Origin: a virus
Taxonomy: Duplodnaviria > Caudoviricetes
Length of the DNA stretch: 64,000 bases
Virus record (IMG/VR): IMGVR_UViG_3300031555_002748
Coordinates: 2,439 to 66,438 of that record
Strand: one strand, 5' to 3'
This document shows, piece by piece, positions 23,314-64,000 of this stretch. The notes beneath the pieces are model-generated. The model saw nothing but the letters and a program-made list of their open reading frames with translations. It ran no database searches and was not told the origin of the DNA. Position 1 is the stretch's first letter. Every line of letters begins with the position of its first letter. The translations under genes were made by a program, and so were the position numbers.

Positions 23314-23430
23314 ATTTATCTGAATCAAGATATCTAAGTATCCAGATTCAGAGTAGTTATTCAACATAACCCGTACTTCACTCCAACTAGAAGTGAATCT
23401 ATAGCTTCGTAACAACAAAACCATACCTTT

Positions 23431-23993: not shown

Positions 23994-23996
23994 AAA

Positions 23997-41355: not shown

Positions 41356-41541
41356 TGGACAAAACAGTTATGTCGCTAGTTATGTCTGTGCGTCCTAGGA
41401 AAAACCTAGTGGACAAAACCTACGACATAACCTAGACATAACCAGAATATAAATATTAATATAAATACTAATATAAATATAAATATTTAATATTATGTCA
41501 AGACATAATATTTATAAAAGTTATGTCGCAATTAGTTTGTC
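41356..41541. repeat. Iteron-like GACA(T/A)AAC boxes in both orientations around an AATATA-repeat tract
   Basis: Boxes near 41358, 41367, 41379, 41412, 41424, 41435 and 41520; palindrome at 41489-41512. Confidence 0.75.
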
Positions 41542-41557
41542 TTGTATGCTCAGAGGC

Positions 41558-41586
41558 ATTATATCATATTAGGAAAGATTTGTCAA
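41558..41586 (-). promoter_or_regulatory. sigmaA-type promoter for the left arm
   Basis: TTGACA-17-TATAAT with extended TG. Confidence 0.85.
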
Positions 41587-41644
41587 ACGATTTTCGGTAG
41601 GGTTTTAAAATTTGTTGAAAAATTTTTGTGCAGCACAGAAAGAA

Positions 41645-41840
41645 CTAAATAAAAATATAATATTAAATGTATTATATGTTTATATTATATATTTATATAT
41701 TAATTATATATATTATATTATTATATATTAATAATTAATTATTATATATTTATAAATTATATATAGATATATATTAATTATATTATATCCCGTAATTATA
41801 AATACTCGTTAAATAAATTTAACTCGCATTTATAATTACT
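41645..41840. repeat. Almost pure A/T low-complexity tract ending in an inverted repeat
   Basis: About 140 nt of TATA/ATTA; GTAATTATAAAT...ATTTATAATTAC at 41792-41839. Confidence 0.85.
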
Positions 41841-43459: not shown

Positions 43460-43473
43460 CTTAACAAAAGACA

Positions 43474-43509
43474 AGCCCCTAACCATTTCGGTTGGGGGCT
43501 TATTTTTTT
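43474..43509 (+). terminator. Intrinsic terminator
   Basis: AAGCCCCTAACC ATTTC GGTTGGGGGCTT ATTTTTTT. Confidence 0.85.
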
Positions 43510-43660
43510 GTCTTTATGAAAGCCCTAAAACTGAAAGGTTTTCGCCTATATAAAATATATAGGGCGAGAGCCTTTTTTGTATCCGTTTTGGATATAAGCC
43601 ATAAAGGGCTTTATGGTTGATTCAGCGACCATTGAAAAACTTAATAAAGGAGGTGCAGAA

Positions 43661-43852
43661 ATGCGAAAGATTTTTTGTACAAGATTTTATAACATAAAAG
43701 GCGACTGTTATAAAACCTACGAAAAACCCTATGATCCTAGATATGATCATGAAGGAACAACCTACGGAAACGGTTTCCGTCGTGTATCCTACATAAGAAC
43801 TGAAAGGGTTGAGGGCAGAAAAGTCTATACACCACAAGGAGGTCAACAATGA
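43661..43852 (+). CDS. Small hypothetical protein
   Basis: Likely start MRKIF after AAGGAGGT. Confidence 0.65.
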   Translation: MRKIFCTRFYNIKGDCYKTYEKPYDPRYDHEGTTYGNGFRRVSYIRTERVEGRKVYTPQGGQQ

Positions 43853-44016
43853 CAAAAGCAGAAGCCGTTTCATTTATGCAATTAAAGTCCGAACTTGAAC
43901 GAGAAATGGATAGATTCAAGGATACGGAAACTCGTGAAAGCATTTTGAAACAAATTAAAGCAAATGAGCCATTATTCATAAAGGCTCAAAAAGTTATCGC
44001 TCGTTACAACAAGTAA
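43849..44016 (+). CDS. 55-aa helical hypothetical protein
   Basis: RBS AAGGAGG, ATGA overlap with the upstream gene; MTKAEAVSFMQLKSELERE...VIARYNK*; below the track cutoff. Confidence 0.65.
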   Translation: MTKAEAVSFMQLKSELEREMDRFKDTETRESILKQIKANEPLFIKAQKVIARYNK

Positions 44017-44022
44017 CGGGCA

Positions 44023-44072
44023 AACCGTCTTACGGTGAAAGTCCGTAACTGATGAGCAATAGCGAAACGGTT
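44023..44072 (+). ncRNA. Hammerhead ribozyme, type III
   Basis: AACCGUC / stem I UUACGG-UGAAAGU-CCGUAA / CUGAUGA / stem II GC-AAUA-GC / GAAACGGUU. All core nucleotides are present; GUC cleavage site at 44027-44029. Confidence 0.9.
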
Positions 44073-44084
44073 CGTTGACGCACA

Positions 44085-44740
44085 ATAACATCACAAGGGT
44101 GATTGAGTGGTATTTTTTTCGTTTTGCTTTTTGCTCGTTAGCCATTAGGCTCTGATAGTGCCTTAAAACTTTCAGCGGTTTGGACAGCCGACCAGATAGG
44201 TATTTGACCGAAATGGCGAATAAATCAAGGGATACAGCACCCTTGACCATAAGTGTTTTTGCTTTATAGCAAATAGTGGAGATAAGCACCACTACCTTGT
44301 TGCAAAAAGTTGCAATAAAAGGGATAAGTTGTGGAAACAGCACCACGACCGAAAGATAATTGAACGCTTTAAGGTGTAGTCCTACGCCTTAACACCAACC
44401 GACCTCGTTATATGAAGAATATAACGGCGATCCGTAATAGTTGCTATGCACTCACTACTCTCATTTGGTAAGTGAGTTTTTCAAAATAAATGGCAACGAA
44501 TAGAGTTTAGGGGTGCAAATAGCCTAGTAATTTACAAACGAAACGGCATTTTAGTTAGACACAACGAGAGTTTGTAAATGAAAGGGAATAAGGAACAGTT
44601 TAGAGTTTGCTAAAACTTATTAAGGTGGGGATTTAGTTGGTCTACTTGACAGGGGTAGTTGGCAACCACTAATGAAACAACTTGACTTTCAATGGTCGTT
44701 CTGTAAGCAACCAGATAGCGACCACCATTACCAAAGGGCG
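44085..44740 (+). ncRNA. Large ornate structured ncRNA (ROOL/GOLLD-class candidate)
   Basis: About 650 nt without a credible ORF in an otherwise gene-dense arm; more than 12 helices found by eye; family not confirmed. Confidence 0.7.
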
Positions 44741-44779
44741 AAATAAAAATAAAAAACAAAATAGTCGGAGGACAAAATT

Positions 44780-45217
44780 ATGAAAACAATGAAACAACAA
44801 CTTATGGAACTTGCAACAAAGCATTTAGACTGTGAATTATGGGCTTGTGATGATGGCTGTAAAGTTCACATAATCAACCACAATGGAATTTGCGTCAAAT
44901 CTTATTCGTGGTATTGTACTGAAATTGAAGTCGATGATGGCGAAGATTATGGCGAATACAAAGACAGCATATACGGAATCGGCGAAGATAAAGAAGATAT
45001 ACTAATGGCTTATGCCGAAAACCACGAAAGCGTTGAACTCATTAGACCAAAACTCTATGAAGAGCATAAGCAACTCTTGTTAGATGCACTTAAAAATGCT
45101 CATAAAGCATACTGGCTTTGGAGGTCAAATTTCGTAACCCAAAGTGATATAGACTTTGAAGAATTGACCGATATTGCCGTTGCAATAGACAATTTTGTTA
45201 ATGAAAGGGAGGTGTAA
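44780..45217 (+). CDS. Acidic hypothetical protein
   Basis: 145 aa with GGAGG RBS. Confidence 0.7.
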   Translation: MKTMKQQLMELATKHLDCELWACDDGCKVHIINHNGICVKSYSWYCTEIEVDDGEDYGEYKDSIYGIGEDKEDILMAYAENHESVELIRPKLYEEHKQLLLDALKNAHKAYWLWRSNFVTQSDIDFEELTDIAVAIDNFVNEREV

Positions 45218-45218
45218 T

Positions 45219-45416
45219 ATGTTTAGACAATACGAAAACCCACACAAGTTGCAACAACAACTTGAAGAACTTGAAAGGCAATATGCCGAAAACCCAGAAG
45301 ATGCAGATTTATGCATTGAAATTGCAGCACTCAAAGACCGTATAAATTTTGCGTGGCAAGACGACGAGTATGACTGTGATTATATGCAAGAAAATTATCC
45401 AGAAGATTACGAATAA
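45219..45416 (+). CDS. Acidic hypothetical protein
   Basis: Likely start MFRQYENP. Confidence 0.65.
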   Translation: MFRQYENPHKLQQQLEELERQYAENPEDADLCIEIAALKDRINFAWQDDEYDCDYMQENYPEDYE

Positions 45417-45430
45417 AGGAGCGAATACAA

Positions 45431-46543
45431 ATGAACATCATTAAGCAAATTGAGATGAAAATCAAGCAAGAACGACTTTATCAAGAAGATTATGCCCTAG
45501 CAATGGAACGAGAGCATAAACGCCTTGACAAAGAGCGTAGAGAGCAAGAAGAACAGTTTGAAGAATTTATGGCAGACTATAAAAGAGATAGTGCCAAATT
45601 CGGGTTCTAATGCGATATTTTTGAAAGTTTACAAGGAGGTGTAAATCAATGAGCAAGGCACAACAAATTGCTGAACTTATTTTGCTTGGCTATTCACAAG
45701 AAGATGCCCAAGAAATAGTAGCAAGTAAATAATAAAAAACTGTCCTAAGCACGACAATAAAAGGCTCAAAATAAAACAAGCCAAAGGAGATAAAAAATTA
45801 TGGCGAAAAGAATTTATGACGAGTATGCAATATACTCAAAGGCAAGACCGAGCAAACAAAAGGGCAAAGAAAAAAGCAAAATGTCCTATGAACAGTACAA
45901 AGCGTACAAAGCAAAGAAAAGGGGGAAATAAATCATGGGAAGAATGAGTAATAAAGTGCTTGGATACAAGAGCAAAGACAAAGGAAACTGTAAAACAGCA
46001 ATAGAGGCATTTGATAAGATAGAGCAATGCCGTGATACGCTATTCTCAATAAGCCGCGAAAAGAAGAAGTCTTGGGGAACGGCTTGGTATGATTACACAA
46101 GACACAATATGTTCGAAATGGCAATAAAGGAAATTATCCTACAACCAGAAGACTTTGTAAAGAGTGTGGCAATAACTTGCATCAATGACATTGCACGACT
46201 TTGGAAAGAATTAAGAGAACTTGAAACGAAAGGTGGTGTAAGATAAATGCACAACATTAACGATTTCATAGGCAAATACACTGTTGTTCTTATGGACAAT
46301 GGTGCTTTTGCCGTGGACAATGAAAACGGCACATATACAATTTATGCCGACAAAAAACAGCCGAAAACAATAACGGCAACACTTGTAGATATAATATAGG
46401 AGGATATAAAAATGAACATCTACATTGACGGAAAATTAGCCACAGAGCAACAACTATTTTTGCTCGAACTTGCACTTAAAAAGCGACTTTTTAGAGCAAA
46501 CGCTTATGCTAACAAACTTGGCATTTTTTATGTAACATTTTAG
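45431..46543 (+). other. Run of short hypothetical genes (27-103 aa)
   Basis: RBS-preceded ORFs starting at 45431, 45649, 45800, 45935, 46247 and 46412. Confidence 0.55.
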
Positions 46544-46555
46544 GAGGAAATAACA

Positions 46556-46885
46556 ATGGAAAATTCTATAAGAAAGGGGTATGAAAGATTGGCAACAAAA
46601 GTGCTAAAAGACTTTAATGGCGATTGGGTAAGGGCAATTGTATTTCGTGACAAAGAAAGCGACTTTGACGAATTAAGGAAGTTTTTTGCGACTGAAAATT
46701 ATGAACTTTTTTGCAACTTATGCAGCATAAATGCCAAAGATTGGCAAAACTTCCTTGAAAATCTAAAAACAAGGGCTTTTGCCGACAAGAAGTTGCACGC
46801 AACGTTGCAAGAACAATGGTATAAGCAACAACACAATAAAGATTTTTATGACGATTTGCTAATGGAGCAACAAGAACAAATGTAA
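46556..46885 (+). CDS. Hypothetical protein
   Basis: 109 aa with AGGAGG RBS. Confidence 0.65.
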   Translation: MENSIRKGYERLATKVLKDFNGDWVRAIVFRDKESDFDELRKFFATENYELFCNLCSINAKDWQNFLENLKTRAFADKKLHATLQEQWYKQQHNKDFYDDLLMEQQEQM

Positions 46886-46898
46886 GGAGAGATGAAAA

Positions 46899-47228
46899 AT
46901 GTTAATACTATCAACAAAACTGAAAAATGCACTTAACAAGCAAGGTGGCGATATGCCGTTGCAATTTACTCTAAAAAATATTACAATAAATGGTGCAAAG
47001 CGTGGTTGCAGTGGCTTTGTGCGAAACCTTGACAATAACACGGTAGTATATATAAATACCGAAGAACCTTGTTTGTCAAACTTGCACTATATGTATAGAT
47101 ATGCCGACCACGAAAAGGACTATACAGGATACCATAACCGTTGGGCAGATACACTTGATGCGTTGGCTTATTCTGTTTGCCGTTTGTTAAAAAGTACACC
47201 TCAAGAACAAAATGATAGGAAAATATAA
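46899..47228 (+). CDS. Hypothetical protein
   Basis: 109 aa; NG.KRGCSGF and YRYA...KDYTG..N motifs. Confidence 0.65.
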   Translation: MLILSTKLKNALNKQGGDMPLQFTLKNITINGAKRGCSGFVRNLDNNTVVYINTEEPCLSNLHYMYRYADHEKDYTGYHNRWADTLDALAYSVCRLLKSTPQEQNDRKI

Positions 47229-47245
47229 AAGGAGAACACGACAAA

Positions 47246-49495
47246 ATGACTATAATAAATACAAAAAACTATGACGAAAAAATGTATAGAATAAATCTTT
47301 TAACAGGAACGGTTTGGATAGAGCAATACGGTGTTTATGCCTATAACGAACAAGAGGCTTGCGATACACTTGCCGATTACTTGGAAGAAAACGAAAGTGG
47401 TTTGTGTATTGACTATTGGCACTTGAACGACTTATGCGACAGTTTTCAGTCAGTAGACGAGTATGCCGAAGCCCACAACTTAACTTGCTGTGGAAACCAT
47501 AGCGTATACTTGGAAATAGAAAGCATTACGGAGGTAGTGCAACAATGAAGCATAACGAGATAAAATTTGATATTAAAACAACTGATGCAATATTGCGTAA
47601 TTTATGTGCAACATTAAAAGTAAATAGCCTTGATTATGTTTGCAATTTTGACAAAGACCATTATATTGTAGGTATAAAATGTGGCAAGTATATTATTGAT
47701 CGTCCGTTAATCATAACCACGGGGTTATTATTTACAGTAACTGACGACAAAAATATTTCGTGTGGACTTTATGATACCAAATACTTGTTGAAACTTTTAA
47801 TTGAGGCACAAAAGAAAGAAAAAGCAAAAATGACAGGTTACAATCCAACACCATACGAGAAAGGCATAACCGACTCAATTGAAAGGAGTTGGGAAATAAA
47901 AAAGAATATAAAAAAGTGGGAGGGTAAAGAATAATGCCACCAAAAGAACGAGAACGACTTGAATTTGAGTTTACTCATAATGGAAGAATTTACTATTTTG
48001 ATAATTACTATATCACAGAAGATGGCAAATATGTTTGCCGTTGTGATTTAACTGCAACAAATTATTATGGCAACAAAGAAGTTATGCTAATATGTTGCAA
48101 AATTGCCCTTGACGCTTATCTTGAAAGTAAAGAACAAGCCGAGAGAGATGTTAAACAAGAAATTTGCAAAGTGCTTGGAGTATACAAGGAGAACTAAAAT
48201 GACAGAAGAAATGCTTAAAAAAGAATATGAACAAAAATTGGCTGCACTTCGTAATAAGCAAAATAATTGCAATCATACTTGGGGAGAAACAAAGTATGAT
48301 CCCGAAATAATACAAGAGCCTAGATATGAAATGAAGTTTCAAGGAAGCGATTGTTATCACGAAGTAGTTGGTTATACGGAATGCAAAAAAGATAGATGGA
48401 GTAGAACTTGTGTAAACTGTGGAAAGGTTGAGTATACTTATACGCAAAAACCTATACAGTATGCACCAGATTTTGATTAAGGAGGACTAACATGAAACAA
48501 AACCGAAAAAAGTTAGTGCGAAAATTTATTGCAAAACTGAATGGTGAAATTCAAGAATTAAGAGATTATTACAATAGGTTGCTTAAAAACAAATATATTG
48601 ATGACAAGCAAAATTGCAGACTTAATTTAATCAAATTAGATGTGGTCGAAAAGATTTTCTGTAATGAGGAATTCTACGGCGAGATGTATTCCGAAGATAA
48701 TTATGTTATCTCTAATCATTTGTTGAATTTATTATGCATCAGAGATTTAAGTACGGCGGCAGACCTTATGGATAGTGTCTATATGTCTACAAAACTTGCA
48801 ATCCCCAAAAATTTTTCATTCAACTTACTCACACCATTAGAACGGGGAATGTTAAACGACCAATTTAAGGAGAACAACAATGAACGAAAACGAAATTAAA
48901 GACCTATTATACGATTTAGCAATGGGCATAGTTGATTTATTCCACGAAAACGCTGAGTTAAGAGAGATAAACAAGCAACTCAAAAAATACAAGGAAAAAA
49001 GAGAGCAAGAAGATCAAGAGTATTTACAACATAGCCAAAAACAAGTGAGTAAAACTCTTGCGACTTTATTGAGAGCAAACAAGGAGGAGAACAACAATGA
49101 ACGACAAAATTAAGGCATTTGCCGAAAAACAAATGAAACTTGCTAACCACGGCATAGATACAAGCAAAATGGTGGGCTTTGAATACAAGGGGCAATATAT
49201 CATAAACCCTTTTGTAGACGAAACTTGCCGATTTGAAGTAGATCCATACGAATACTATGGAATGCACGAAATGCTTGAATACACCAATGGCATAATTGAA
49301 AAAGCCGAAAAAATGCAAGAGTTTTACTATACTTTTGGAAGCTACTACGAAGACCTTGATAATCTTGCCAAAAAATTGCAAGACGATTATAATGGTGGCA
49401 AAGAATTTATGCAACAAGAAGAAGATAGACTTGGTTTGTGCTTCTTACTTGATATGTTTGATGATGTGGAGGTAAATAACAATGAGAAAAACTAA
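47246..49495 (+). other. Run of seven coupled hypothetical genes
   Basis: 47246-47548, 47545-47934, 47934-48197, 48199-48480, 48492-48899, 48880-49113 and 49097-49495. Confidence 0.65.
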
Positions 49496-50030
49496 ATTCA
49501 ACATTGACAACAACGAAAACATTTATGAAGGCTACACATACGGAGATACTTGGAATGGCTGGGCTTGTCCTTATTTTACAAAGGAAGTTGCCGATAAAAT
49601 GGCAAAAGATTATGACTATGCAATGTATTATGAAGAACGTATTGATGCGTTTATTGTGGCAAATGTAGGTGCTCACGAGACATTAGATGAGGGCTCAAGA
49701 GATTTAGTTGATAGAATTATCAAGTATGCAAACCCAGATATAACAAAAGACTACGAAGTTAGAAACATAATATCAATACTTATAGGACTTGATTTTGAGG
49801 TATATACTGGCGAAGATATTAAAGTTGATGGCGAAATCTTGCACCTTTACGATATAGGAAATTGTTGCTGGATTTGGGACGAATACGAAATGGTTACTTG
49901 TGCTTGGTGTGGCGAAGATTATGAAGAAAGTGAACTCAAAAACACCGACCTTGGTAAACTATGCGACGATTGTATTGAAGCAATGCGTAGTCGTGGCGAA
50001 AGTATAACAATAAAATTTGGGGAGGACTAA
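49482..50030 (+). CDS. Hypothetical protein with C-terminal Zn finger
   Basis: WNGWACPYF motif; CAWC...CDDC. Confidence 0.65.
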   Translation: MRKTKFNIDNNENIYEGYTYGDTWNGWACPYFTKEVADKMAKDYDYAMYYEERIDAFIVANVGAHETLDEGSRDLVDRIIKYANPDITKDYEVRNIISILIGLDFEVYTGEDIKVDGEILHLYDIGNCCWIWDEYEMVTCAWCGEDYEESELKNTDLGKLCDDCIEAMRSRGESITIKFGED

Positions 50031-50226
50031 AAATGAAACTTACTAACAAGCAAATGTACGAAATAGAAACCTATTGCTGGAACAACTATTGTCCAGTAGA
50101 AACTTTCCTTGAAAACTTGGAATACGAACTTGGCAACGAAAAGATTGCTAAAATTGAAAACAAAATCATAACCACAACAAGTGGCAATAAAATAAGATTT
50201 GGCGAAATTATTTAGGAGGAATAAAA

Positions 50227-50433
50227 ATGCGAAAAGTACCTATTAAACAAGAGTATGAAGAATACTACATTTATTTAGAAGAGTTGCGTTTATCTGGCGA
50301 AACAAATATGTGGGGTGCAACGCCGTATTTGGTTTGTAGATACGGTTTAGACGAAGTTAGAGCAAACGAAATTCTTTTTAGTTGGATAGACAACTATGAA
50401 GAACTTGCCGAAAAATATCAATGGAGGAATTAA
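50227..50433 (+). CDS. Small hypothetical protein (DUF5049-like)
   Basis: LEELRLSGETNMWGA motif. Confidence 0.55.
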   Translation: MRKVPIKQEYEEYYIYLEELRLSGETNMWGATPYLVCRYGLDEVRANEILFSWIDNYEELAEKYQWRN

Positions 50434-50435
50434 CT

Positions 50436-51170
50436 ATGCGTGAACAAGAAATTTTTGAAAGAAACTACAAAGGCTACAAATTTGTGGCAATACAGCAAGC
50501 ACCCGAAGATACCGAGCCACCTATGATATTTGATGATTTTGAAGAAAATTACCCAAATGTAATTATTATGGGCAATCGAGAGTTTAAGTATTATGGTGTT
50601 GAAACTTGGTTTGAAAGAGTTTGGGAGTATTTTGAATACGCCAAAGACACTATAACTGATATTAACAATGGCGTTGATGATTGCTATGATTCAGTTGAAG
50701 ATTATCTTGATGATTACTTCCCAAACATGAAAGGTAATGGTGGTCAATACGAGCCAGAAAGAGTAGAAAAACTTATAAAGGCTTTGGAAGAATCATATAT
50801 ATTCACAAGAGCCGACTTTGATAGTTGCTTATGCCGAGTTCTTGGTGTTATGTTCGATAAAAAGTGGAATTACACTACATTGAGTGGTTATTGCCAAAGC
50901 GATTGGCAAGGTTGCTACTATTGCACGGAAGATAATGACAAAGAAATTATTAAAGCACTTGAAGCCTATTATTTCAACACAGGCAATGAATACAGAGTTC
51001 ATTTTGTAGATGAAAACGGCAACATTGATGAAGATGAGTGTGAATACGATTATGTATATAAATACCCAGAAGAACAACAACTTGCCGACAATTATGGTTG
51101 CAAGATTGAAGAAATCAAATTTTTTAGACATAACGGATACTACAAAATATCTAAATATGAGGAGGACTAA
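50436..51170 (+). CDS. Very acidic hypothetical protein
   Basis: Likely start MREQ; GYCQSDWQ motif. Confidence 0.65.
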   Translation: MREQEIFERNYKGYKFVAIQQAPEDTEPPMIFDDFEENYPNVIIMGNREFKYYGVETWFERVWEYFEYAKDTITDINNGVDDCYDSVEDYLDDYFPNMKGNGGQYEPERVEKLIKALEESYIFTRADFDSCLCRVLGVMFDKKWNYTTLSGYCQSDWQGCYYCTEDNDKEIIKALEAYYFNTGNEYRVHFVDENGNIDEDECEYDYVYKYPEEQQLADNYGCKIEEIKFFRHNGYYKISKYEED

Positions 51171-51173
51171 CCT

Positions 51174-52833
51174 ATGAAAACACCTTGGAAACAATACATT
51201 GAATATCTTAAAGATTGGGCAGAAGATCACAGTAGCGAACTTTGTGATGGAATGAGCCCAGTTTGTTACGACGAATGGCTTGACAATGAATATACTGAAA
51301 GTGGACTTGATGCATCTATATGTCCATACTGTGAAAGCGAAAATACCGAACAACTTGATTTTGATTGGGAAAGCAATTCTGCAAAGCACATTTGCCGAGA
51401 TTGCAATCAAGACTATATTGCTTGGTATGACGATACAACCGAAAAGTGCAACGAAATAACCGATAGACACAACAAAATGATTAAGAAAATGGAGGACTAA
51501 ATAATGTACGAAGAAATTTTGAAAATTGTAGAAAAATATTTTGGCAATATTGGTTGCGAAGATTGCGAGTGTTGTGCGCAAGAAATTGCAATTAAAATTG
51601 AAGACCCAGAGGGTTATAAAGAAATTTTTAAGGAGGACTAACCTATGCTACACATTAAATTCAAGTATGCCGACGCTATGTCAAATTGGCAATGGAGAGA
51701 ACAAGAATGCACCGTTTCAAGCGTTGAAGAGTGCAAGAGAATTTACGGTCTTGGAATAGATTGTGAATACGAAATTTTATCAGTTGAGGAGGTATAAGTA
51801 TGACAGGTTATCATAACACAAAAATTATAGCAATATTTGAAGGAATTGAAGAACACTACAATGTTCCGTTTAAGCACACTCTTGTTTGTGACACTATGGA
51901 AGAAGTTGCAGAATATAGAGAACACCTTTGCTGTTGTGAGTACAGAATTGATAATGAAACAATTTTGGAAAACCAAGATGTAATAACCATCAATAAAGAG
52001 GAGGTATAGGTATGAAGAAACAATGGTACACAGTAAGTTTTAGTGCAAAAATGACCGAAGAAGATGTAAGAGCAATGAAAAATTGCTTTTATCAAGCAAT
52101 GGAAGAGGCAATGCAAATAAGCCCTTGTGCTGCACTCGATATTGAACTTGAAGATGACCAAGATGAAGATGAGGAGGACTAATTATGACAGGCTTTAATT
52201 TTAGAGCATATCTCAGAAATTATGAGATACTACAAGTTATAGGAGTAAACAAAACTCGAAAGCAATTCAAGAATTTTCTTAGGGTTTTGTATGGCAAAAA
52301 GAAAGATCGTGGGCATATAAAGCCCAAGATAGAAAAGCAAATTCAAGAAAACGCAAATAATAGAGTAAAGATATTCGGCGCGATATCAAAAGTGATGCCA
52401 AGTTTGTCTATAATGGGACAAAGTTTCTATTGGTTCTAAAGGAGGATATATTAAAATGGCAAGAACTGATTTTGAAAGAGGTGCAATATATGCGAGAGAT
52501 TGCATTATCGCAACAATTTTAGGTATGCAAGAAAGTGTCAGGGGCACAGCAAAATACTCAGTATACCAAGAAGTTATGGATATGATTGAGGAACGACTTG
52601 GTAATATGTTTCAAGACTTTAAGGGATAACGGAGGTATAAAATGAAACTCGGTAGATTACACATAGGCATACGAAAAAGTAGCCGTACACAATTCAAATG
52701 GTTTTACTGTCCACTTATCTCATATAAAAAGGGTGATGAACTTGATAGATTCTCCCCTTGGCACACATTATCACATTTTTGGTGGGTAGGTTGGCACTTT
52801 TATATTGCGATTGAAAGGAGGAAACAAAAATGA
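51174..52833 (+). other. Run of short hypothetical genes
   Basis: RBS-preceded ORFs starting at 51174, 51503, 51645, 51800, 52012, 52185, 52456 and 52642. Confidence 0.55.
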
Positions 52834-53303
52834 ACTGTTCAAAATGTGGTAAACCCATAAACGGAAAAATATACCCAGATAACACTTGTCAAAGTTGCTA
52901 TCTTTATTATCACAAAGGTGGCACAGATAATCCTATTCCAGCAAAAGGTATCATTGCCCACGACTATCGTGGCTATGTAGTTTGCCACATTTGTGGTAGA
53001 GCCTACAAACGACTTGGCTCTCATATTAAAGAGTGCCATAAAATGACTATTGCCGACTACAAAGCCGAGTTTGAGTTGTGCAATAATGCAAGAACAACCG
53101 AGCAAAACTATTCAAAGCATATGAGCAAACTTGCTTATAAATACGATATGGACCAGCAACTTAAAATTGTTGGTGCGGCAACTCGTATCAAGAAAGGGCA
53201 AAAAGATATGCGAAAAGGTAAAAAAGTACGCTTACAAGAGTGTATAGATAAAAAAATAAGAATGTTGGAGGTACGAAACAATGACAAAACAACAAGCGTT
53301 TAA
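52830..53303 (+). CDS. ROS/MucR-like zinc-finger protein
   Basis: CHICGRAYKRLGSHIKECHKMTIADYKAEFEL matches the MucR pattern; additional N-terminal CSKC/CQSC. Confidence 0.7.
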   Translation: MNCSKCGKPINGKIYPDNTCQSCYLYYHKGGTDNPIPAKGIIAHDYRGYVVCHICGRAYKRLGSHIKECHKMTIADYKAEFELCNNARTTEQNYSKHMSKLAYKYDMDQQLKIVGAATRIKKGQKDMRKGKKVRLQECIDKKIRMLEVRNNDKTTSV

Positions 53304-54244
53304 ACAATTCACAGAACTTTACTATGAGGACAAGTACAATCTACAAAGGGCAGTTGACCAAGACTATTGTAAGGTGCAATTAGAATGGTCTTGCTTTGTA
53401 GACAACTTAAACCGTGACGGAGAAATTACCGACAAGCAACGCCAAACTTGGGGAACACCATTTAGTAAGAAAGGTAGGAAATAATTATGAAAGATTGTAG
53501 AGAAGAATTTAGCAACTATACTGCATTTGCAGTGTGGTTTGAACCAGTTCATATTGTAAAACAAGGCAAGAGTTACTATGTATATTATGAAAACCTTAAC
53601 GAGTGGATTCAATGTGGCTCAAAAGAATATATTAACGGTTGGTTGTATGGTTGCGTACAAACAGTTTGTGGACGAGCAAGAAGATTAAAGGAGGAGTGCA
53701 CAAATGTATAAACGTAAAACAAGAGATGTCTATATAATCATGGCAAACTATGGCTATGGTTGGGAAGAAGAGTGCCAAGCCGACACTCGTGAAGAGGCAA
53801 AGCAAAATCTCAAAGAGTACCGTGAAAACGGTGGTGGTCATTACTACTTAAAGACTAAAAGAGAAAAAATTGAGGAGGCAAAATAAAATGAACAAAGATG
53901 TAGCAAAAACACTAAAAAACTATGATGTTTTTCCAATTGAGGATTTAACAAGCATAAGAGCACCACATAACACCCTAGAAAGCGAGGGTGTTTTATTTGT
54001 CGCAAGCCGATGGATAGTTAATAATCTTATCACAGATGATGACATTAAAGATGTTTATGATAACTTCCACGGTTATAGATCTGGTGTAAGTGGTGGTTCA
54101 TTTGACCTTGATGATAATTATAAAATATACGGCGAAGAAGAAAGGTTTGAAATTAGTCACGCAGTATTAAATGGCGATTGTGTTTATTTAATCGTGCTTG
54201 ACGCAAAACAAGATAAATACGTAGCAGCAATTAGAATTAATTAA
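53281..54244 (+). other. Four hypothetical genes
   Basis: 53281-53484, 53487-53711, 53704-53886 and 53888-54244. Confidence 0.6.
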
Positions 54245-54259
54245 TAGGAGGAATGTAAA

Positions 54260-54814
54260 ATGGATAACAAATTTGTTTATTGGGATGATATTTATACAAA
54301 CGGAAAGGGCAGATACTGCACCGAGCAAAATTTAATCAACAACTTTTATAAGAAACAACCATTAGGTAATCAATACATTTATGTAAGCGATTATGATGAA
54401 AACGATATTTATAGCAAGGTGGAAAACCCACACGACGAACTTTCTGGCAAGACGGTTCGTTGTAATTATGCACAATTGTTCTGCGATAATGATAGTTTGT
54501 TGCTTTGTAATAATATACCACAAGTTGACACATGCTTGTTTGATAATGTTGAGGGTGGCGAATTATGTGAGTATTATAACAAAGATGGCGATGAAATTAC
54601 TCGTGAAGAATACAAAGAACTTGGTTGGGAAAATGCAACGGAACAATATCGTGATATCTATCAATATTACTTAATCAACGAATCGCTTGCACATATGTTG
54701 ATTAACCACACAGACAACCTTGTGTTCTATTCTGATGCACTTGATCTATATGTACTTGGTGTAACTCATTTTGGCACAGGTTGGTCTTGTGTTGATGAAG
54801 ATTTTCAATGGTAA
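54260..54814 (+). CDS. Acidic hypothetical protein
   Basis: 184 aa; IYQYYLI...YVLGVTHFGTGW. Confidence 0.65.
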   Translation: MDNKFVYWDDIYTNGKGRYCTEQNLINNFYKKQPLGNQYIYVSDYDENDIYSKVENPHDELSGKTVRCNYAQLFCDNDSLLLCNNIPQVDTCLFDNVEGGELCEYYNKDGDEITREEYKELGWENATEQYRDIYQYYLINESLAHMLINHTDNLVFYSDALDLYVLGVTHFGTGWSCVDEDFQW

Positions 54815-54820
54815 AGGAGG

Positions 54821-57302
54821 ATGAGTAAAATGAAATTTTATGCAGAAACAAGCAAAGGCGAAGAACTTTATATTAGTACAATTAAAGCACCAAACAAGCA
54901 ACAAGCAATTAACTATCTTGAAAAAGAGGGCTACAAAGTAGAGAAAATTGTTGACGCTTCAACACACCACTTATGTAAATACTGTGGTGGTATAGCCGAG
55001 GGCAACTACGAAGACTTGTTATGTGAAGAATGTCGTTATGACTTTGGACACACAATGTATAGTGAGTTATAAGAGGTGATTTATGAAAAAATATTACATT
55101 GAAATGGTAGATAGGAACGGCGAAAAACCATATGTAATACAATCCCGTTGGTTTGATACCGAAGAACAAGCGTTAGAGTGGCTAAACACTACTATCGATT
55201 ATTGCGATTTGATAATATGCTTAATGTCAGCAGTATTTGATAAAGATACTGGCGAATACGAAATTGAATTTGAAAAATATTTAACTTGGGAGGACACTGA
55301 TTTATGAAAATACAAGAAATGTTAGAAATTACAAACACACACTTTGACAAATATACGGAGCAATTCTCAACAAGAGAAGATCTTATAAATAATTCATATA
55401 AGATTGCTCTTGCTAGTAATTTTCAGGGCTGTTTACAAGAGTATGTATTTGAAACAGATTATTTTGAAGACGACGAAATTGAGAAACATAGAGAGCAATA
55501 CGAAATACTTTTTAAGCAAGAAAATATTTACAAAACACTTGTAAATACATTCTTTGATTTCACCCACCCAGAAAGAACTGATATATGGGGCTACTATGAA
55601 GGTTGGGGTGGCACAAAAGATGTCATTGATGAAATAATTAAGATATTAAAAACGGAGGGAAAGTAATATGAACATTAAACAATGGATTGCCGATTGGGCA
55701 AAAGAAAACAATTACACAGGCAAGGAAGATTTTTGGGATTTCTTCTACGATATGAAACCAGATGTGGAAGCTTTCAAAGAAGAAGATTTTGATGATTGGT
55801 ATGACAATGAGTTTTTTGAAGTCGCAAAACCAATTATGATGGAATTGTTTGGATATACTGAGGAGGATATTGAGTTATGATGGTGCAAGAATTAAACCAA
55901 GACCAACTTGACTACCTAAAAACAGTTATGTTTTGGGGTGATGATAACAACAAACCATTACTTTATAAATACGATTATTATTGCGACATACCAAACGAAA
56001 TGGTATTTGAAAGATTTGAAGGCATTAGTTTTGTAGAAGAAGATTTTGAAATTAAAGAATAAAAATTAAAGGAGATTAGATAAATTATGAAAGAAATTAG
56101 AATTACAAAAATGGTAGAACAAACAACAGTAACATTTGAGGCAAATGACGGCAAGAAATTTACGGGGGAAAATGCCGAAAGAGAATGCAAGAACTACGAA
56201 ATGCAATTAAATAAAGACCTTTGCGAAAAGGAATTCAAGAAATTGAAACCAATCTTCTTGGACGAAGTTATTTGGCAGTGGTTTAGTGGCAATACAGAGG
56301 ATTACTTTGTAATCGTGAACTTGAAAAATCAAAATGATTTTGATTGTTTGAGAAATTATTGCGAAAGCAGAAATCCGTATCTTGAATTTGATATTGCTGA
56401 ACCAAAAGAATATCCGAAGCAAATGGTAGTAAGTATGAGCGATAGTTGGGTTTGTGAATATCGTAAAGGCTTAAGTGACTTAACACAACAACTTGAAAAC
56501 ATAGTAGAAAAATGCCACAAGGTACAAGGAGATGAAACACCATGCAAGAATTCTTAAAAGCAATGCACGAAGAGAGAGCTTACACTTGGTTTAATGCAAA
56601 TGGACATAAGTTGAGCAAAGAAGAATTGATGTTGATTGTCAAAGAATTTATTTATGTGATTGGCGATATGTCCGAACTAAACATTGGTAGCCAAGCGTAT
56701 TTAAGTTATGTAGCAGAAAGTATAGAAGAAGAAATGGAGGAAAAATAATATGAAAATAACAGTCGCAAACAAAAACTATGGTCTTGTAGAATTTTATGAC
56801 GAGGTAGCAACACAACTTGGGTATGATAAAGATAGGGTTGAATACGATTGTACGAAGATTTGTGTAGCAGCAAACATTCAAGACAATTTCTTTGCACATT
56901 ACAGAGAAGAAAACCCAGAATTAAGCGAAAGTGATCTTAATACTGGTGTTGGTATGATGCTTGTATGCTCTGGTCCAAAAGTAGATAAGAGCTTAAAAGA
57001 TAATGAAGTCGAAGTATCTGTCGGCTTTATAATAAACAAGGAGGTTGAGTAGTATGAAACATTATGTAGTAGTTTGTGATTGGTGTGATGAAGATTTTAG
57101 TGAAGGTGTTGATATTGTGGCAGTATGTCATTCGTATGATGAAGCAATAAATGAATTTGCAAAAAGACTTAAAGAAGAAAAACAAATCGCAGAAGATAAT
57201 GGTTGGCAAGTGTTTATTGATACTATTGCGGAATTTCAAGCATACGAAGATGGAAATTACCACGACAACCACACATACTTATATATCGAGGAGGTAAAGT
57301 AA
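54821..57302 (+). other. Run of nine small acidic hypothetical genes
   Basis: Starts at 54821, 55083, 55304, 55668, 55877, 56087, 56542, 56750 and 57054, each with an RBS. Confidence 0.6.
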
Positions 57303-57303
57303 T

Positions 57304-57999
57304 ATGGCAAAACTTACAAAACAAAACATTGAGCAATTAGCAAACGAGGTAATGGATTGGTTAATCCGTAACGAACTTAGCATGGATGTGTGTATTTATT
57401 ACAACAACCAAAAAATGCAACACAAATATCATTTCGATAAAGATTACAACATGATTGATGATGGTATTACTGTTGAGAAAGATGTAGATCCACATCAAAT
57501 AACTCAATGGGCAGCACACGACCACATCCTTACAATGACATTTGAGGGTGGTTTGTACAGCTTGTTAAACTACAATGGTGGCAAGTTAGAAATCGAGTTT
57601 GAAAACCTATTCAACAAATATGGACTTTATTATGAGTTTGGCGAAGCTTGGAATCTTACTTGTTATCCTATTTACAACGAACTTGAAGTTGAGTATACAG
57701 TATATGAAAAACCACAACCAACAATTTACTTGTACAGATATGACACAAGCAACAATCCACCAGAATTACAAAAAATAATGGATATTTGGTACGAATTATC
57801 ATCAAAAGTTGGCGATGAAGGTAGTTGTGTGCTAGGTGCTGGGTTTAAGTTTAAGTGGCAAGACAAGAAATATTTTATGTGTGCTTGTAGCCCATATCAA
57901 GGCTCAATATCTTGGGAAAAACATAAGGATACAATTGAAGTATTACTTAAAGACATTGGTGCAGAAAATATTCAATATGATTGGGGGCGTATGGATTGA
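57304..57999 (+). CDS. Hypothetical protein
   Basis: 231 aa with GGAGG RBS. Confidence 0.7.
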   Translation: MAKLTKQNIEQLANEVMDWLIRNELSMDVCIYYNNQKMQHKYHFDKDYNMIDDGITVEKDVDPHQITQWAAHDHILTMTFEGGLYSLLNYNGGKLEIEFENLFNKYGLYYEFGEAWNLTCYPIYNELEVEYTVYEKPQPTIYLYRYDTSNNPPELQKIMDIWYELSSKVGDEGSCVLGAGFKFKWQDKKYFMCACSPYQGSISWEKHKDTIEVLLKDIGAENIQYDWGRMD

Positions 58000-58112
58000 G
58001 AATTTACTACAAAAAGCAATATATAAAAGTAAATTTCGAACAAGCAATGGTTATCTTAAAAACAAACATTGCGTTAACAATACAAACTAATTAAAATAAA
58101 AGGAGATAATTT

Positions 58113-58664
58113 ATGGATTTATTTGCGTACACACAAATTGAAGTTTTAGAAGAAATTCTAAAAAGACAAAAAATTGATGTGCCAAGACTACGTGGACTTC
58201 GACTTATGAAAGATGAAGAGGTTGTAAGTGAAGAAAAAATTGAGGAAATGATTCACGACGAAATTTTGGACACAGTGACAAAAATTGTGGAGCAAGGAAC
58301 TTTAAACAGTTGGTCATCTTGGCTCGAGGATACACGTAATGATATTTTAATCCGCAAAGATGTGGTTCACGAATGGGGAACAAAAAGAGAAGTTGTCGGG
58401 TATCGTTGGGATAAAATTCACGGCAAGAAAAGAAAGTGGATTAAACTTGAGATTAAGCAAATCAAGAAGAGAGTGCGTAAGCAGTATGAAATGTGGAACA
58501 AACATGTTGGGCAAGATGTATTGTATGTACATTCTCGTTGCGGTGGTGATAACTGGAGTTATTTTGGTGCAGATAAATTGCTTGCACACCCCGATTTTCT
58601 TGATAGGTGTGACGATTATTGGGATGGCACTTATTGTGATATATATTTTAAAATTAAAAATTAA
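58113..58664 (+). CDS. Hypothetical protein
   Basis: 183 aa; MDLFAY..I...VPRLRGLRLM...DDYWDGTYCDIY. Confidence 0.7.
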   Translation: MDLFAYTQIEVLEEILKRQKIDVPRLRGLRLMKDEEVVSEEKIEEMIHDEILDTVTKIVEQGTLNSWSSWLEDTRNDILIRKDVVHEWGTKREVVGYRWDKIHGKKRKWIKLEIKQIKKRVRKQYEMWNKHVGQDVLYVHSRCGGDNWSYFGADKLLAHPDFLDRCDDYWDGTYCDIYFKIKN

Positions 58665-58677
58665 AGGAGATAAAATT

Positions 58678-59460
58678 ATGACTTTTAGAGAACAGTTAAG
58701 TAAAGTAAACGAACTAGGTATTAATATTTGCGACCTTGAGGTTGCGAACGAATGTGATTGTGTGTTTAATTTTGAATACACCGAACAAGAATTTGAGCAA
58801 CTTTGTGATTTTGCAAGACATTGCTACTTAAAAGACCAAAGTGGTAATATTACGCCAAATCACATTGCACAAGCAATTAATGAATTAATCACAGAAGATG
58901 GCAAAACAATTCAAGAAGTACTTGATATAAACAGATGGGATATGCTTGATAAAGCAAGTAATTGGTTGTAAGTAAAATATGGTTGTGCTACCGACCGTAA
59001 ACGGGCAAATAAATTAAAGTGAGGTAACGTTATGAAAATTTATAGAACTTGCAATCCAACAAAATTTATTGGAGGAATTGAAACACAGTTTGCTCACAAG
59101 TTAATTATGACTTGTGGTGGTGGTATGGGTGGCTCTCGTTGGGAGGAATATATTACAGACCTTGATCCACATGATTTTACCACAGAACACCCAATTGAAT
59201 GCACAAATTATCTTGGCGAAACGGTATTTATTAATCCTAAATATGTTGCAAAAATGACCGAGGTAAAGGTGGTTAAAGTACAAGAAGATATTACGGCATG
59301 GAAAAATTATCATTCTGGCGATGACGGTAGACAATATATTACAACTCGTTATTTGGAGTGTAAAGTAGATGAATCGTGTTCTCTTGTAGATGAATATAAG
59401 TATGAGTCAGATAAGGGCTGTGTGATTTCAACAAAAACTATTTCAAGAAAAAAATATTAA
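58678..59460 (+). other. Two hypothetical genes
   Basis: 58678-58971 (start MTFR) and 59032-59460. Confidence 0.6.
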
Positions 59461-59477
59461 TTAGGAGGATGTAATAT

Positions 59478-59741
59478 ATGAATAGTGAATTTCAAAAATA
59501 TCTTGATAAGGCATTTAGCGAATTAGATGTAACGGTAACTAAAAAAGGTGTGTTTAAAGTAACGATTGAAGAAATGGTATCTGAAACATTTGAAGTCGAA
59601 GCTACCAATATTGAAGAAGCAATGCAAATTGCCGAAGAAAAATATAATAATGGCGAGTTCGTGCTTGAACCCGGCAACTTAACTTGTAAGCAAATGATGG
59701 CAGAGGGCGACAACGAAACTACTGAATGGGTTGAATTTTAA
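59478..59741 (+). CDS. DpnD/PcfM-family protein
   Basis: FKVTIEEMVSETFEVEATNIEEAMQIAEEKYNNGEFVL. Confidence 0.7.
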   Translation: MNSEFQKYLDKAFSELDVTVTKKGVFKVTIEEMVSETFEVEATNIEEAMQIAEEKYNNGEFVLEPGNLTCKQMMAEGDNETTEWVEF

Positions 59742-59752
59742 GGAGGTTATAT

Positions 59753-62700
59753 ATGGGAATGGATTATAATTATGCGGGAAGTGCAAGTTATCCGAGATTT
59801 GATGAGGAAATTTGTAAAGTTGCAGAAGTGTTTGGTGGTATTAAAACGGAATACCTTAAACAGAGAAAAGAAACTGAAAATGAAAGACCATTTGGATATT
59901 GGTTTGGGTTTTTAAGTTCGGACAATTCTGATGAAACTAAGTTTATCTTTCCAGAAGATACAAATGCAACTCTTGTTAAATGGTTTAATAATCTCTATGA
60001 AGATTTATCGCAGCAAGAAACAGAAGTTGTTGCAGAACTTATTTTTCAACACCCGGAAATTAAAGAAATATCAGAACAGCTTTGGTACGAATTTGAATGT
60101 TTAATTCAATGTGGAGACAACTGGAGTATTTGTTAAATTTTAAGGAGGTATAAACATGAGAAATCGTAAAGAGATTTTAGAATATCTTAATATTCCCGAA
60201 TATTCGGATGACGTTATAGATGTTAATAAAGTTGTAGAAACTGCTCAACGCATTGAGCAAGAATACGAAGAAGAATTGAGCGAAGATAGTGTTGGATATG
60301 GTTTGCTTTGTGATTTTGAAAGCAAACCTTTTGTTCTTGAAGATTGTGAGATTGAAAAAATTATAGAAATAAATGGTATTGTAGTTTATAAAAAATTGGA
60401 GGATAAATAAATGAAAACAAGTGCAGGAGAAATTACAACAAGATTTTATGATGATGATATAGCAAAAGGCGTTGAGATTTTGCTCAACGGAGAAGTTGTG
60501 GCAATGGTTGATGTGTATGAGCCAATAGGCGACGAAACTGAAGGCGAAGCAAGAGTGCTTGTATATTGCAATGGCGATGACGAGCCGACCGAATGTATTA
60601 CAATAAATAGATAACTTAAGGAGGTATAAATTATGAGTAGAATTGATAACATTGTAAACTTTGCACAAAAGAGAGAAGAAGATAAGGTGGCAAAAGAATT
60701 AGCCGCACAACAACGCATTGAAAATTACAAGAAACAAATTATTGCGTTAAAACCAAGAATTGATGAGATTATTGAAGTTGGAAATGCTTGTCGAGAAAAC
60801 AACATCCCTATAGCATGTAAATGTGGTTGTCACCAAGGATACGATACGCATTATTTCTATACAAATGGTTGGTCGCATTTATTAGGTTTTGTCGATGAGT
60901 GTAAAAATGGAAGAAGAATACCAATTACTAGATTAGGAATCCAAGGCGGTGGTTGTTGTCATTATGACTTGGAAACCGACGGTATAACGGTTGATGTTTC
61001 TGGTAGGGACACCGAATATGTTTTAAAAAGATTTGTCAACGAATTTGATGAATTTGAAACCGAATTCTACAAATATGTTGACGGTGTAACCCAAGGTAAA
61101 TAAAGGAGGATATATCAATGGAAAACAAAATTAAAGTAACAGTAGAATATGAAAAACCTGAAATGAGCAAGATTGATGCTTTATTAAAAGAATATGAAGC
61201 TGCCGCCAATGTGGCTTCTGAAACCAAACGAGAACTTACACCTGTAATTAAAGAAGTTGGACTTGCAAAATACGCAGCAATTATGAAACAACTTGAACCT
61301 ATAATGGACGGTATGAAAAAACTATCGCATTTAAATGACATACTTAATGGTCGTGATTCTGGTGTTCGCCTTGTTGTTTATTATGAACATCCGGGTGTAG
61401 GTGCAAGAAAGTTTATAATTGATTATGGTAGAGGTAATAATTGTGAAAAATTTGATATTAAATATTGTGTTAGCCTTGAATCGTATAGTGACAAAGGAGA
61501 AAACTTTAAAGATACTTCTTCTGATGAATACAATCTTATGTTTGGAGAAAACAGAGGAATTGTTACTCATTGGAATAAAATTGGCATAATCGATAAATTA
61601 AACAAAGAACTTGAAAAAAGAATTAAAGATAATATAGATAGTGCTTTTCGTATTAAAAAAGCAACCGAAAACAAATTAAACAATTTAATAAATGATTAAG
61701 GAGGTATACACCATGGAAAAACGCACAGCAATAAACAAAGAACTCAAAGTAAAATATGACAAATTCAGAGACGAATGTGGTCACATTGGTTACTTTAATA
61801 TGATAGTTTCGTATCTATTGCAAAAAGGATACGAAAATGTGTTAGAAATAACCGACAAACATATCGCAAATATGAAAAAGCGACTTGAAAAAGAAGATGA
61901 AGAACTTCGTGCCCAACACAAAATGAGTTTAATGACACCTGAATTTCAAGTATGGCTCGTAGAAATGTCAGTTAAGCTTGCCAAAATAGGTAAGCTTTTT
62001 GACTTGCTTAAATATATTCAAAATGAAATGTGGATTAATTAGGAGGCGTAATAATGAAACAACAAAACAAATATGAAATATTATTTCAAGAATGGTTAGA
62101 TTTAACTGAGTTCAGTCTTGTTAAGCACACAAACCCAGAACACATTGTAGAGTATGAAACTACTAATGGAGAACCTGATTGTGCAATTGAGTATTATGGT
62201 GTTTGGAGTATATATGATAGACAAGGTGCAAATCTCGGTAACATTAACGAAAATAGGTTTGATAACGCTGGACAAATCATTGATAGAATGGATATTTACA
62301 TCAATGATTACATTTATAGGGATTTAGAAGAAGAACTTGATGCTTACGAAGTAGATTTAGAAGATAATGAGCTACCTTGGAGTGCAGACAAGTGGTTGGC
62401 GTTAGCGAACAATAAAGAGTTTTACAAAAAGAACAAGGATTACTTTGATAACCACCAATGGGAATTTAATATGTTAGATATGATTGCAAACCATTGCGAC
62501 GAAATCAATCTTGAAAATATTTATTACGAGGAGGAAGAATAAATGAAAGTTAAAGATTTACAAGCGATTTTAGCAACAATGAACCCAGATACTGAATTAA
62601 GATTGTACTGTGGTGGCGAAACATTTTATGAAGATTATCCACTTGATGGTGTCGAACACCACGAAGATGATGGTTTTATTTGCTTCAACTTAACTGATGA

Positions 62701-63165: not shown

Positions 63166-63166
63166 T

Positions 63167-63727: not shown

Positions 63728-64000
63728 CACGACAAAATAATTATGGAGGAATGATATATGAAAAAAATTAAAGCAAAAATAGGAACACCTGTGGCAGTTT
63801 TACTTTTAGATATACTTGAAACGTTAAAACATAATGATTACGAGGTGTTGCGTGAAAATGGGTTTGATACTGAATACAAAGATGGGATATTAGAGCCTTG
63901 TATTGAAGGTTTGATAGATGATTTTTGTAAACCTATAATCGAATATGACAGAGATGTAGAAATTAATTTGGAGGATAAAAAAATGAAACATGTGAGTAAA

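Follow-up and report, generated by a model that had tools for sequence, protein, structure and literature searches.

A predicted hammerhead ribozyme followed by a large structured RNA at the head of a small-gene array in an uncultured gut phage

Intergenic hammerhead ribozymes are described in polycistronic units of phages and prophages (PMC3088659; Rfam RF00008, clan CL00010). In the haloviruses HF1 and HF2 such a hammerhead lies 13 nt upstream of the first open reading frame (ORF) of an early polycistronic transcript, and the mapped 5' end of this transcript is at most 3 nt from the cleavage site (PMC3088659). The role of bacterial and phage hammerheads was still termed unknown in a 2019 review (PMC6765202). 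Here we analyse a 64,000-nt stretch of phage DNA (the window; bases 2439-66438 of a 66,438-base IMG/VR virus record with a CheckV completeness of 38%), in which a predicted type III hammerhead is followed by a large structured non-coding RNA and a long array of small genes. The hammerhead resembles the described phage examples in its canonical core, its 2-bp stem II and its intergenic position in a polycistronic unit, and HF1/HF2 give a precedent for a place at the head of an early transcript. It differs from them in scoring below the Rfam gathering cut-off, in belonging to a class that occurs once per record in large gut phages, and in preceding an anti-ribozyme strand and a large RNA, not a gene.

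The nearest counterparts of the large RNA are ROOL, with a mean length of 581 nt (Weinberg et al. 2017, PMC5737381; Kretsch et al. 2025, PMC12286853), and GOLLD. The 589-nt conserved core of the window RNA is alike in size, in its ruminant or animal gut origin, in being phage-borne and in its many hairpins and junctions. It differs in lying 20 kb from the tRNA cluster and on the opposite strand, not beside it, and in being placed inside a small-gene operon behind a ribozyme. Avsunviroid and viroid-like hammerheads are also not the most stable fold of their RNA and are thought to act during transcription, before an alternative fold takes over (PMC3185496). The window belongs to a DNA phage, in which there is one ribozyme and neither a rolling-circle nor a circular RNA, and its alternative fold is made by a dedicated downstream antisense strand. 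RiboJ-type synthetic insulators combine a hammerhead with a hairpin and give the downstream RNA a defined, structured 5' end; the window element is natural and its downstream unit is a large non-coding RNA. At the level of titles and abstract openings, we found no description of a hammerhead joined to a large ornate RNA, and the arrangement of ribozyme, anti-strand and large RNA appears to be undescribed. We regard the stretch as quite possibly, if just short of probably, a composite RNA unit within a rightward polycistronic transcript of an uncultured large siphophage of animal guts.

The hammerhead and its class

A complete type III hammerhead can be read directly from the plus strand (Table 1). 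Core residues C3 U4 G5 A6 N7 G8 A9 (44049-55) and G12 A13 A14 (44064-66) are intact and are aligned as such by RF00008. A44067 and U44028 form A15.1-U16.1, G44056 and C44063 form G10.1-C11.1, and position 17 is C44029, a non-G residue. Three stems surround the core; loops close stems I and II, and stem III is open. Cleavage is predicted between C44029 and U44030. When a descriptor script was run on the window it found four core-like sites, and only the one at 44022-44073 had stems I and III.

RF00008 (Hammerhead_3) aligned over its full model with 31.9 bits (E 8.8e-6 in an 86-nt search). This is below the gathering cut-off of 48.5 bits, and the site was also missed in a 1.6-kb Rfam scan at E<=10. 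The alignment has four residues between the strands of stem II and the model has 12, and we take the short stem II to be the probable cause of the low score. Stems II of two base pairs are called common among natural hammerheads by Perreault et al. 2011 (PMC3088659).

To describe the class, a core-motif scan of IMG/VR with four free loop bases was used. It gave 116 matches in 114 stretches, and a script found the same hammerhead architecture in 80 of the 116. The class alignment holds 45 distinct examples and the window, 46 gap-free sequences in all; stem I pairing was a selection criterion, stem II with its G-C pair was fixed by the search motif and stem III was unselected. Standard pairs fill 93.8% of the 644 pair cells, and both-sided changes occur at 9 of the 14 pairs, with 4-6 pair types at four positions of stem III. 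The covariation score is 0.52, compared with 0.105 in shuffles (0 of 500 reach it) and at most 0.128 with the partners slid. The U-A and G-C core pairs are invariant in 46 of 46 sequences, the G-C pair being set by the search motif. Loop residues outside the searched motif, namely U, A and U in loop I and A in loop II, do not vary among the 46 sequences; invariant or nearly invariant loop residues fit a tertiary contact between loops I and II, of the kind that gives hammerheads fast cleavage at cellular Mg2+. Since core and pairs are complete, the class covaries, the loops are invariant and a 2-bp stem II is common in nature, we file 44022-44073 as a hammerhead with predicted cleavage activity. 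The first-pass annotation had named a hammerhead at this place, and the complete architecture, the full-model match and the covarying class bear it out.

A covariance model of the class (R2) found exactly one copy in the record of the window and in eight other records of 94-216 kb (G000, G002, G003 and G006-G011 together), and none in G001, the closest complete relative by portal protein (57% identity). The eight other records had been picked for having the motif, so the finding is that none of them holds a second copy. In each of the three records that could be evaluated (the window, G002 and G006), gene direction switches from leftward to rightward 2.4-3.1 kb ahead of the hammerhead; the first few rightward genes come in between, and a long array of small rightward genes follows directly behind it. 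Three small rightward proteins of the window are also present in G002 and G003. Hammerheads of this class are thus found repeatedly at the head of the small-gene operon, where the first-pass annotation had placed the one in the window. In G002 about 2 kb nearly without ORFs (L170 6856-8805) separate the leftward from the first rightward genes, upstream of the hammerhead, and the covariance model of the large RNA (R1) had no match in this stretch.

At the gathering score Rfam reported 0 of 16 class members in 15 loci (L021-L083). The class falls below this score and is therefore missed by routine Rfam annotation. Other RNAs were seen in some of the loci: a skipping-rope RNA (L021 9181-9261) about 900 nt upstream of the L021 hammerhead, and gut-2 RNAs (L025 6734-6781; L043 6062-6109) in two small phage loci that also bear a hammerhead.

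The large RNA and its two relatives

From the hammerhead to the first gene there are 707 nt of non-coding sequence (44074-44779). A coding function, also under an altered stop codon, was rejected for this stretch, as all three stop codons occur in every frame. The whole of 44017-44779 folds at -212.7 kcal/mol (z -4.62). The borders of the RNA were defined from two related gut-metagenome contigs in public runs, X6 (9,076 nt) and X7 (20,387 nt). The core is about 94-96% identical in the two contigs, and the flanks are unalignable at 80% likeness. Folded as plus-strand RNA the core has a z of -3.70, and as minus-strand RNA -1.60; its 151-nt centre, the region of model R1 (44222-44372), reaches -5.58. 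Three hairpins in this centre (44225-46, 44274-94 and 44328-49) are closed by G-C and have 8-9-nt loops ending in AGCA, and a fourth hairpin with an AGCA-type loop is found at 44700-15. From the frequency of the hexamer AGCACC in the window, 0.21 copies would be expected in the core, which has three. The ornate RNA of about 650 nt with repeated AGCA loops, which the first-pass annotation had described, corresponds to this core.

X6 carries the hammerhead (44023-44068), eight other bases replacing 44069-44146, and then 44147-44719, 573 nt in which it differs by 33 substitutions and 4 gaps; after one extra base the similarity goes on to about 44729. In X7, 44142-44524 is followed by 12 bases replacing 44525-44581 and then by 44582-44730; the 532 nt contain 24 substitutions and 4 gaps. 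A 133-nt block (44191-44324) is invariant in both. The pair 44330-44347 is U-G in the window, C-G in X6 and U-A in X7. The hairpin at 44450-44477 has 15-17 edits in each relative; in a hand reconstruction a perfect stem of 7 bp (X6) or 6 bp (X7) is kept, and the loop is largely unchanged. The arm at 44525-44581 is replaced in X7 by a 12-nt mini-hairpin of three pairs with a GAAA tetraloop.

We considered whether the 589-nt stretch might be no functional RNA at all, being instead coding sequence that has decayed, or an element that works at the DNA level (an origin or a packaging site, for example). That there are only three closely related copies, with no homologue in the other collections searched, would suit such an element. 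The asymmetry of folding between the strands, U-G pairs that are usable solely in plus-strand RNA, a hairpin rewritten with its stem kept, an arm exchanged for a tetraloop hairpin and a 133-nt invariant block amid unrelated flanks all argue against it, and we consider it highly improbable. Judged by its sequence, the element is an unclassified large structured phage RNA, of which three close copies are known.

Further copies were sought by several routes, in collections from which records very close to the window may be missing. A blastn search in distant mode against GenBank phages gave no match to the large RNA, and a 22-nt piece of the invariant block had 0 matches in viral contigs; its single match in a metagenome contig proved on alignment to be a chance hit in an unrelated GC-rich contig. 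A three-loop pattern hit 35 loci in viral contigs, all of them low-complexity coding repeats, and a two-loop pattern hit 2 loci in genome contigs, both unrelated. Model R1 had no match in five whole phage records, and in 100 sources (1.03 Mb) it matched the window alone (193.7 bits). In the 399 genomes scored out of 401 sampled Clostridia, blastn gave only matches of 27 nt and 40 nt (E ~4e-4 per genome), which we read as chance. G001 had no blast match to the large RNA and no hammerhead; tRNAs and a DUF3800-I RNA are among the contents of its ORF-poor regions. No family matched the large RNA in whole-Rfam scans. GOLLD was absent from the results of these scans, and ROOL (RF03087) had no match at E<=10, with control genomes giving no signal either in one dedicated scan. 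An antitoxin RNA of a type III toxin-antitoxin system (a ToxI-like decoy) was rejected, as there is no tandem array and there are no long direct repeats in 43950-44800.

Two small features were seen at the ends of the core. The 3'-terminal hairpin is followed by CCA (44693-44727), in which we see a faint likeness to a tRNA acceptor minihelix; ARAGORN found no tRNA at this place. 3'-end trimming enzymes might define the end of the RNA at this CCA. Besides, CCATTA stands at both borders of the block conserved in X7 (44142-44147 and 44725-44730), and this repeat could be a target-site duplication, a recombination microhomology or chance.

Folding competition and the tie between ribozyme and RNA

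A strand located 47-69 nt past the end of the ribozyme, and stopping one base short of the conserved core, can pair with 44049-44070 (Table 1). Its target reaches from the ribozyme core through stem II to the 3' strand of stem III. The helix is present in both the minimum-energy and the centroid fold of the whole 44017-44779, and its four non-Watson-Crick positions are all G-U on the plus strand. The duplex energy is -27.5 kcal/mol, compared with a class median of -11.7 (47 members, window included) and -16.2 for the next best member. When this downstream sequence of the window itself was shuffled 1000 times, no shuffle reached -27.5 kcal/mol (best -21.5), and a comparable strand was found in 0 of the 46 other class members. 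When growing transcripts were folded, the best hammerhead-containing fold was 3-6 kcal/mol above the minimum until about 44124. The 3' fragment expected after cleavage (44030-44146) is predicted to fold into the stem I hairpin at its 5' end and then the 21-bp helix (-39.8 kcal/mol, z -4.94).

Hammerheads in nature are reported to be selected for co-transcriptional action, and those of viroids are proposed to yield afterwards to a more stable fold (PMC3185496). We read the arrangement in the window in the same way, as a predicted cut-then-lock, and the folding models support a physical tie between hammerhead and RNA through the anti-strand. In this mechanism the hammerhead would fold during transcription and cut between C44029 and U44030. 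The upstream fragment with its two tiny genes would end in a 9-bp hairpin and a cyclic phosphate, while the downstream fragment would start with a 5'-OH inside the stem I hairpin. Once transcribed, 44119-44141 would turn the ribozyme core into the 21-bp helix and the ribozyme would be locked. The 5' end of the large RNA would become a 112-nt base-paired rod, which should resist 5'-end-dependent RNases. The 589-nt core would most likely be freed by a host endonuclease in the A-rich linker, and once free it could serve in trans as a stable scaffold, binding proteins by its three or four AGCA hairpins; these last two steps, the weakest of all, are conjectural. That the large RNA is a released, stable, trans-acting and protein-binding RNA is proposed with low confidence, because it is conserved like a cassette amid changing neighbours, repeats a hairpin motif and would have a fully paired 5' end after cleavage. 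The full chain would be that the cut and the antisense refolding free and stabilise the 589-nt RNA at the start of a small-gene, probably early, programme, that the RNA acts in trans on a host or defence protein through the AGCA hairpins, and that the single hammerhead is a conserved operon-head mark in large gut phages. Taken whole, this chain is unlikely.

Several observations weigh against the proposed composite unit and its mechanism. In nearest-neighbour folding the hammerhead is never the minimum-energy fold, and once 44130-44141 exist it lies 10-20 kcal/mol above the minimum; thus the anti-strand may just as well silence the ribozyme. When 76-nt frames were compared, the folding penalty of the window ranked within the top five of 52 class members, but this frame cuts the upstream hairpin, which inflates the penalty, and folding of other segments and of growing transcripts replaces it. 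X6 is without the anti-strand segment, which means that the RNA does not need it. X7 has other sequence, and no hammerhead, in the 30 nt shown upstream of its RNA. Related operons carry the hammerhead without the RNA, other class members directly precede genes, and by nhmmer and a core covariance model the RNA was not found beside any other hammerhead. The RNA is known from three sequences only (the window, X6 and X7), and no 3' end signal, promoter or partner protein was identified for it. Outside the hypervariable hairpin there are 25 substitution events, of which 12 fall on unpaired positions, 6 keep and 7 break pairs of the minimum-energy fold. The broken pairs are mostly in the long-range helices, so these parts of the fold model are unreliable.

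The energy gap raises the possibility that the hammerhead is silenced here, the anti-strand capturing the core before the cut, so that the ribozyme would be a relic or would work only with a factor holding the U-rich strand. The hammerhead conformer is the less stable one as soon as 44130-44141 are made, and the competing fold in the window is unusually strong for the class. On the other hand, 13 of 13 core residues and the conserved loop residues are intact, natural hammerheads are reported to be selected for co-transcriptional action (PMC3185496), and the anti-strand comes 47-69 nt past the end of the ribozyme. We therefore think that silencing is very unlikely.

A further possibility is that the hammerhead serves the operon, uncoupling the first rightward genes from the small-gene array and giving the array mRNA a hairpin-protected 5' end, and that the RNA is an independent cassette in a permissive gap between the ribozyme and the first gene. 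The same hammerhead position is found without the RNA in other large phages, and an ORF of at least 40 aa begins 0-298 nt downstream of the motif in all 83 judgeable rows of 89, the window having 707 nt there. The RNA of X7 stands behind other sequence. Moreover, the borders of the RNA are sharp, with unrelated flanks and the 6-nt direct repeat CCATTA at each of them. Yet the anti-strand ends exactly at the core border and is missing from the 46 other class members, and in X6 hammerhead and RNA are 8 nt apart. The cassette explanation is possible, although on balance doubtful. Between a specific coupling and an RNA cassette filling the gap behind an operon-level ribozyme, we see about equal chances.

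The proposal of the first-pass annotation that the hammerhead serves the large RNA consequently holds in part. It is favoured by the adjacency in X6 and by the anti-strand in the window, and disfavoured by X7 and by a class that usually precedes genes. The co-occurrence of ribozyme and RNA, which that annotation had suggested looking for, has the same two sides: X6 pairs them, X7 has no hammerhead in the 30 nt shown and the class elsewhere lacks the RNA. The roles that it offered for the RNA, as a sponge, an anti-defence decoy or an antitermination leader, are conjectural. It had also spoken of a protective hairpin ahead of the hammerhead. The hairpin exists, but it belongs to the upstream cleavage product and not to the large RNA.

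The main functional alternative to release is a cis-acting leader, because a ribosome-binding site (RBS) follows within 20-50 nt in three lineages and there is no intervening terminator. The small-gene mRNA would in this case keep the large RNA at its 5' end as a long structured leader, which would act on stability, translation or terminator read-through. No terminator separates the RNA from the first ORF, the RBS lies about 20-50 nt past the RNA in the window, X6 and X7, and terminator-like sites are few in the array. Against a gene-specific leader, the following gene differs among the three lineages, and related operons manage without the RNA. The cis-acting antitermination RNAs HK022 put and EAR are much smaller than 589 nt. 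A cis-acting leader is thus distinctly unlikely.

Genomic surroundings and meaning

The elements named in the first-pass annotation (small gene, hairpin, hammerhead, large RNA, A-rich linker and small genes) are all present on the plus strand in that order (Table 1).

Table 1. Features of the locus and of the neighbouring units (window positions).
Feature	Position	Strand	Basis or remark
Six-tRNA cluster	23082-24073	-	ARAGORN; 20 kb from the large RNA
Strong intrinsic-terminator-like hairpin	43473-43501	+	12-bp stem, 7 G-C pairs, T run; closes the preceding unit
Small ORF, 63 aa from ATG	43661-43852	+	Behind an AAGGAGG site; ORF list: 43613-43852, 79 aa
Small ORF, 55 aa, last gene ahead of the ribozyme	43849-44016	+	Good ribosome-binding site
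9-bp hairpin over the stop codon of the 55-aa gene	43999-44021	+	-13.3 kcal/mol, z -5.18; inverted repeat
Type III hammerhead ribozyme	44022-44073	+	Direct reading; RF00008 31.9 bits; class model R2 71.4 bits; class covariation
Hammerhead stem III	44023-28/44067-72	+	6 bp, open
Hammerhead stem I	44030-35/44043-48	+	6 bp, 7-nt loop
Hammerhead core CUGAUGA	44049-55	+	Direct reading
Hammerhead stem II	44056-57/44062-63	+	2 bp, 4-nt loop
Hammerhead core GAAA	44064-67	+	Direct reading
Small linker hairpin, then U-rich run	44090-44103	+	Predicted fold
Anti-hammerhead strand	44119-44141	+	Pairs with 44049-44070: 21 bp including 4 G-U, one small internal loop
Conserved core of the large non-coding RNA, 589 nt	44142-44730	+	Similarity borders in X6/X7; strand asymmetry
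Sub-domain with three AGCA-loop hairpins and two small hairpins	44225-44349	+	Within helix 44251-58/44362-69
Hypervariable hairpin	44450-44477	+	Rewritten in X6 and X7, stem kept
Replaceable arm, long hairpin	44525-44581	+	Swapped in X7
3'-terminal core hairpin with fourth AGCA-type loop, then CCA	44693-44724	+	X6/X7 similarity ends at 44729-30
A-rich unstructured linker	44731-44779	+	RBS GGAGGA 44767-72, ATG at 44780
First array ORF, 145 aa	44780-45217	+	ORF list

Minus-strand genes occupy 1-41.3 kb of the window and include a portal, a probable large terminase, tail proteins and an exonuclease. The small plus-strand genes start at about 42.5 kb, where GC skew and AT skew both flip. The portal is about 30% identical to those of large Bacillus, Brevibacillus, Alicyclobacillus and Lactococcus siphophages. 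Near-identical DNA is found in animal gut and faeces metagenomes, with seven runs carrying at least one fifth of the sampled words, and no RNA-type run was among the matching sequencing runs listed. An 812-nt ORF-free gap divides the leftward and rightward gene blocks; it contains AT-rich tandem repeats with periods of 5-57 at 41412-41788, a region that may be a promoter or an origin.

The unit ahead of the ribozyme follows a strong terminator-like hairpin. Between this terminator and the next gene (43527-43625) we recognised no promoter; there is a terminator-like hairpin at 43561-43574 and, by eye only, a near-perfect AT-rich palindrome. A scan for promoters gave promoter-like sites no more numerous than in shuffles, and none was identified. 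The 63-aa ORF matched no Pfam or PHROG family, and the 55-aa ORF matched no protein family and had no relatives in the viral contig collection. A 124-aa minus-strand ORF (43972-44346) was discarded, as it has no credible family and a single sub-threshold Pfam match (E 0.005). The hairpin over the stop codon of the 55-aa gene ends 8 nt ahead of the cleavage site, and 0 of 200 shuffles are equally stable.

Downstream, 94% of 44780-64000 is taken up by plus-strand ORFs that do not overlap and have at least 40 aa (55 ORFs, median 100 aa), which agrees with the roughly 60 small genes over 19 kb counted before. The first-pass annotation had also seen no terminator in this array, and only three weak terminator-like sites were found on the plus strand (13 on both strands, 9.9 +/- 3.2 in shuffles). 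None of the array genes matched a protein family, and the first of them had no relatives in the viral contig collection.

The tRNA cluster lies at the distance from the large RNA that was first reported. It is adjoined by a DUF3800-XI RNA (Rfam RF02975) at 24294-24341 on the minus strand (45.6 bits, cut-off 37.8). In G001 a DUF3800-I RNA abuts a tRNA (L012 6650-6773). The same region of G001 encodes at L012 5330-6470 a predicted protein of about 380 aa, with paired Cys motifs in its end part. By eye only it has the look of a TnpB-type transposon nuclease, and its ORF is followed by a structured stretch (L012 6470-6650), the DUF3800-I RNA and tRNAs.

Very few large structured phage RNAs are on record (GOLLD and ROOL), and the 589-nt RNA is a candidate addition to them; its context differs, as it lies in a small-gene operon and not in a tRNA island. 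With the anti-ribozyme strand, if true, a DNA phage would supply a natural case of the cut-then-lock folding that viroids are known for. Finally, a hammerhead class that escapes routine Rfam annotation at the gathering score and occurs once per genome at a defined operon position provides a concrete case in which the role of bacterial and phage hammerheads can be put to the test.

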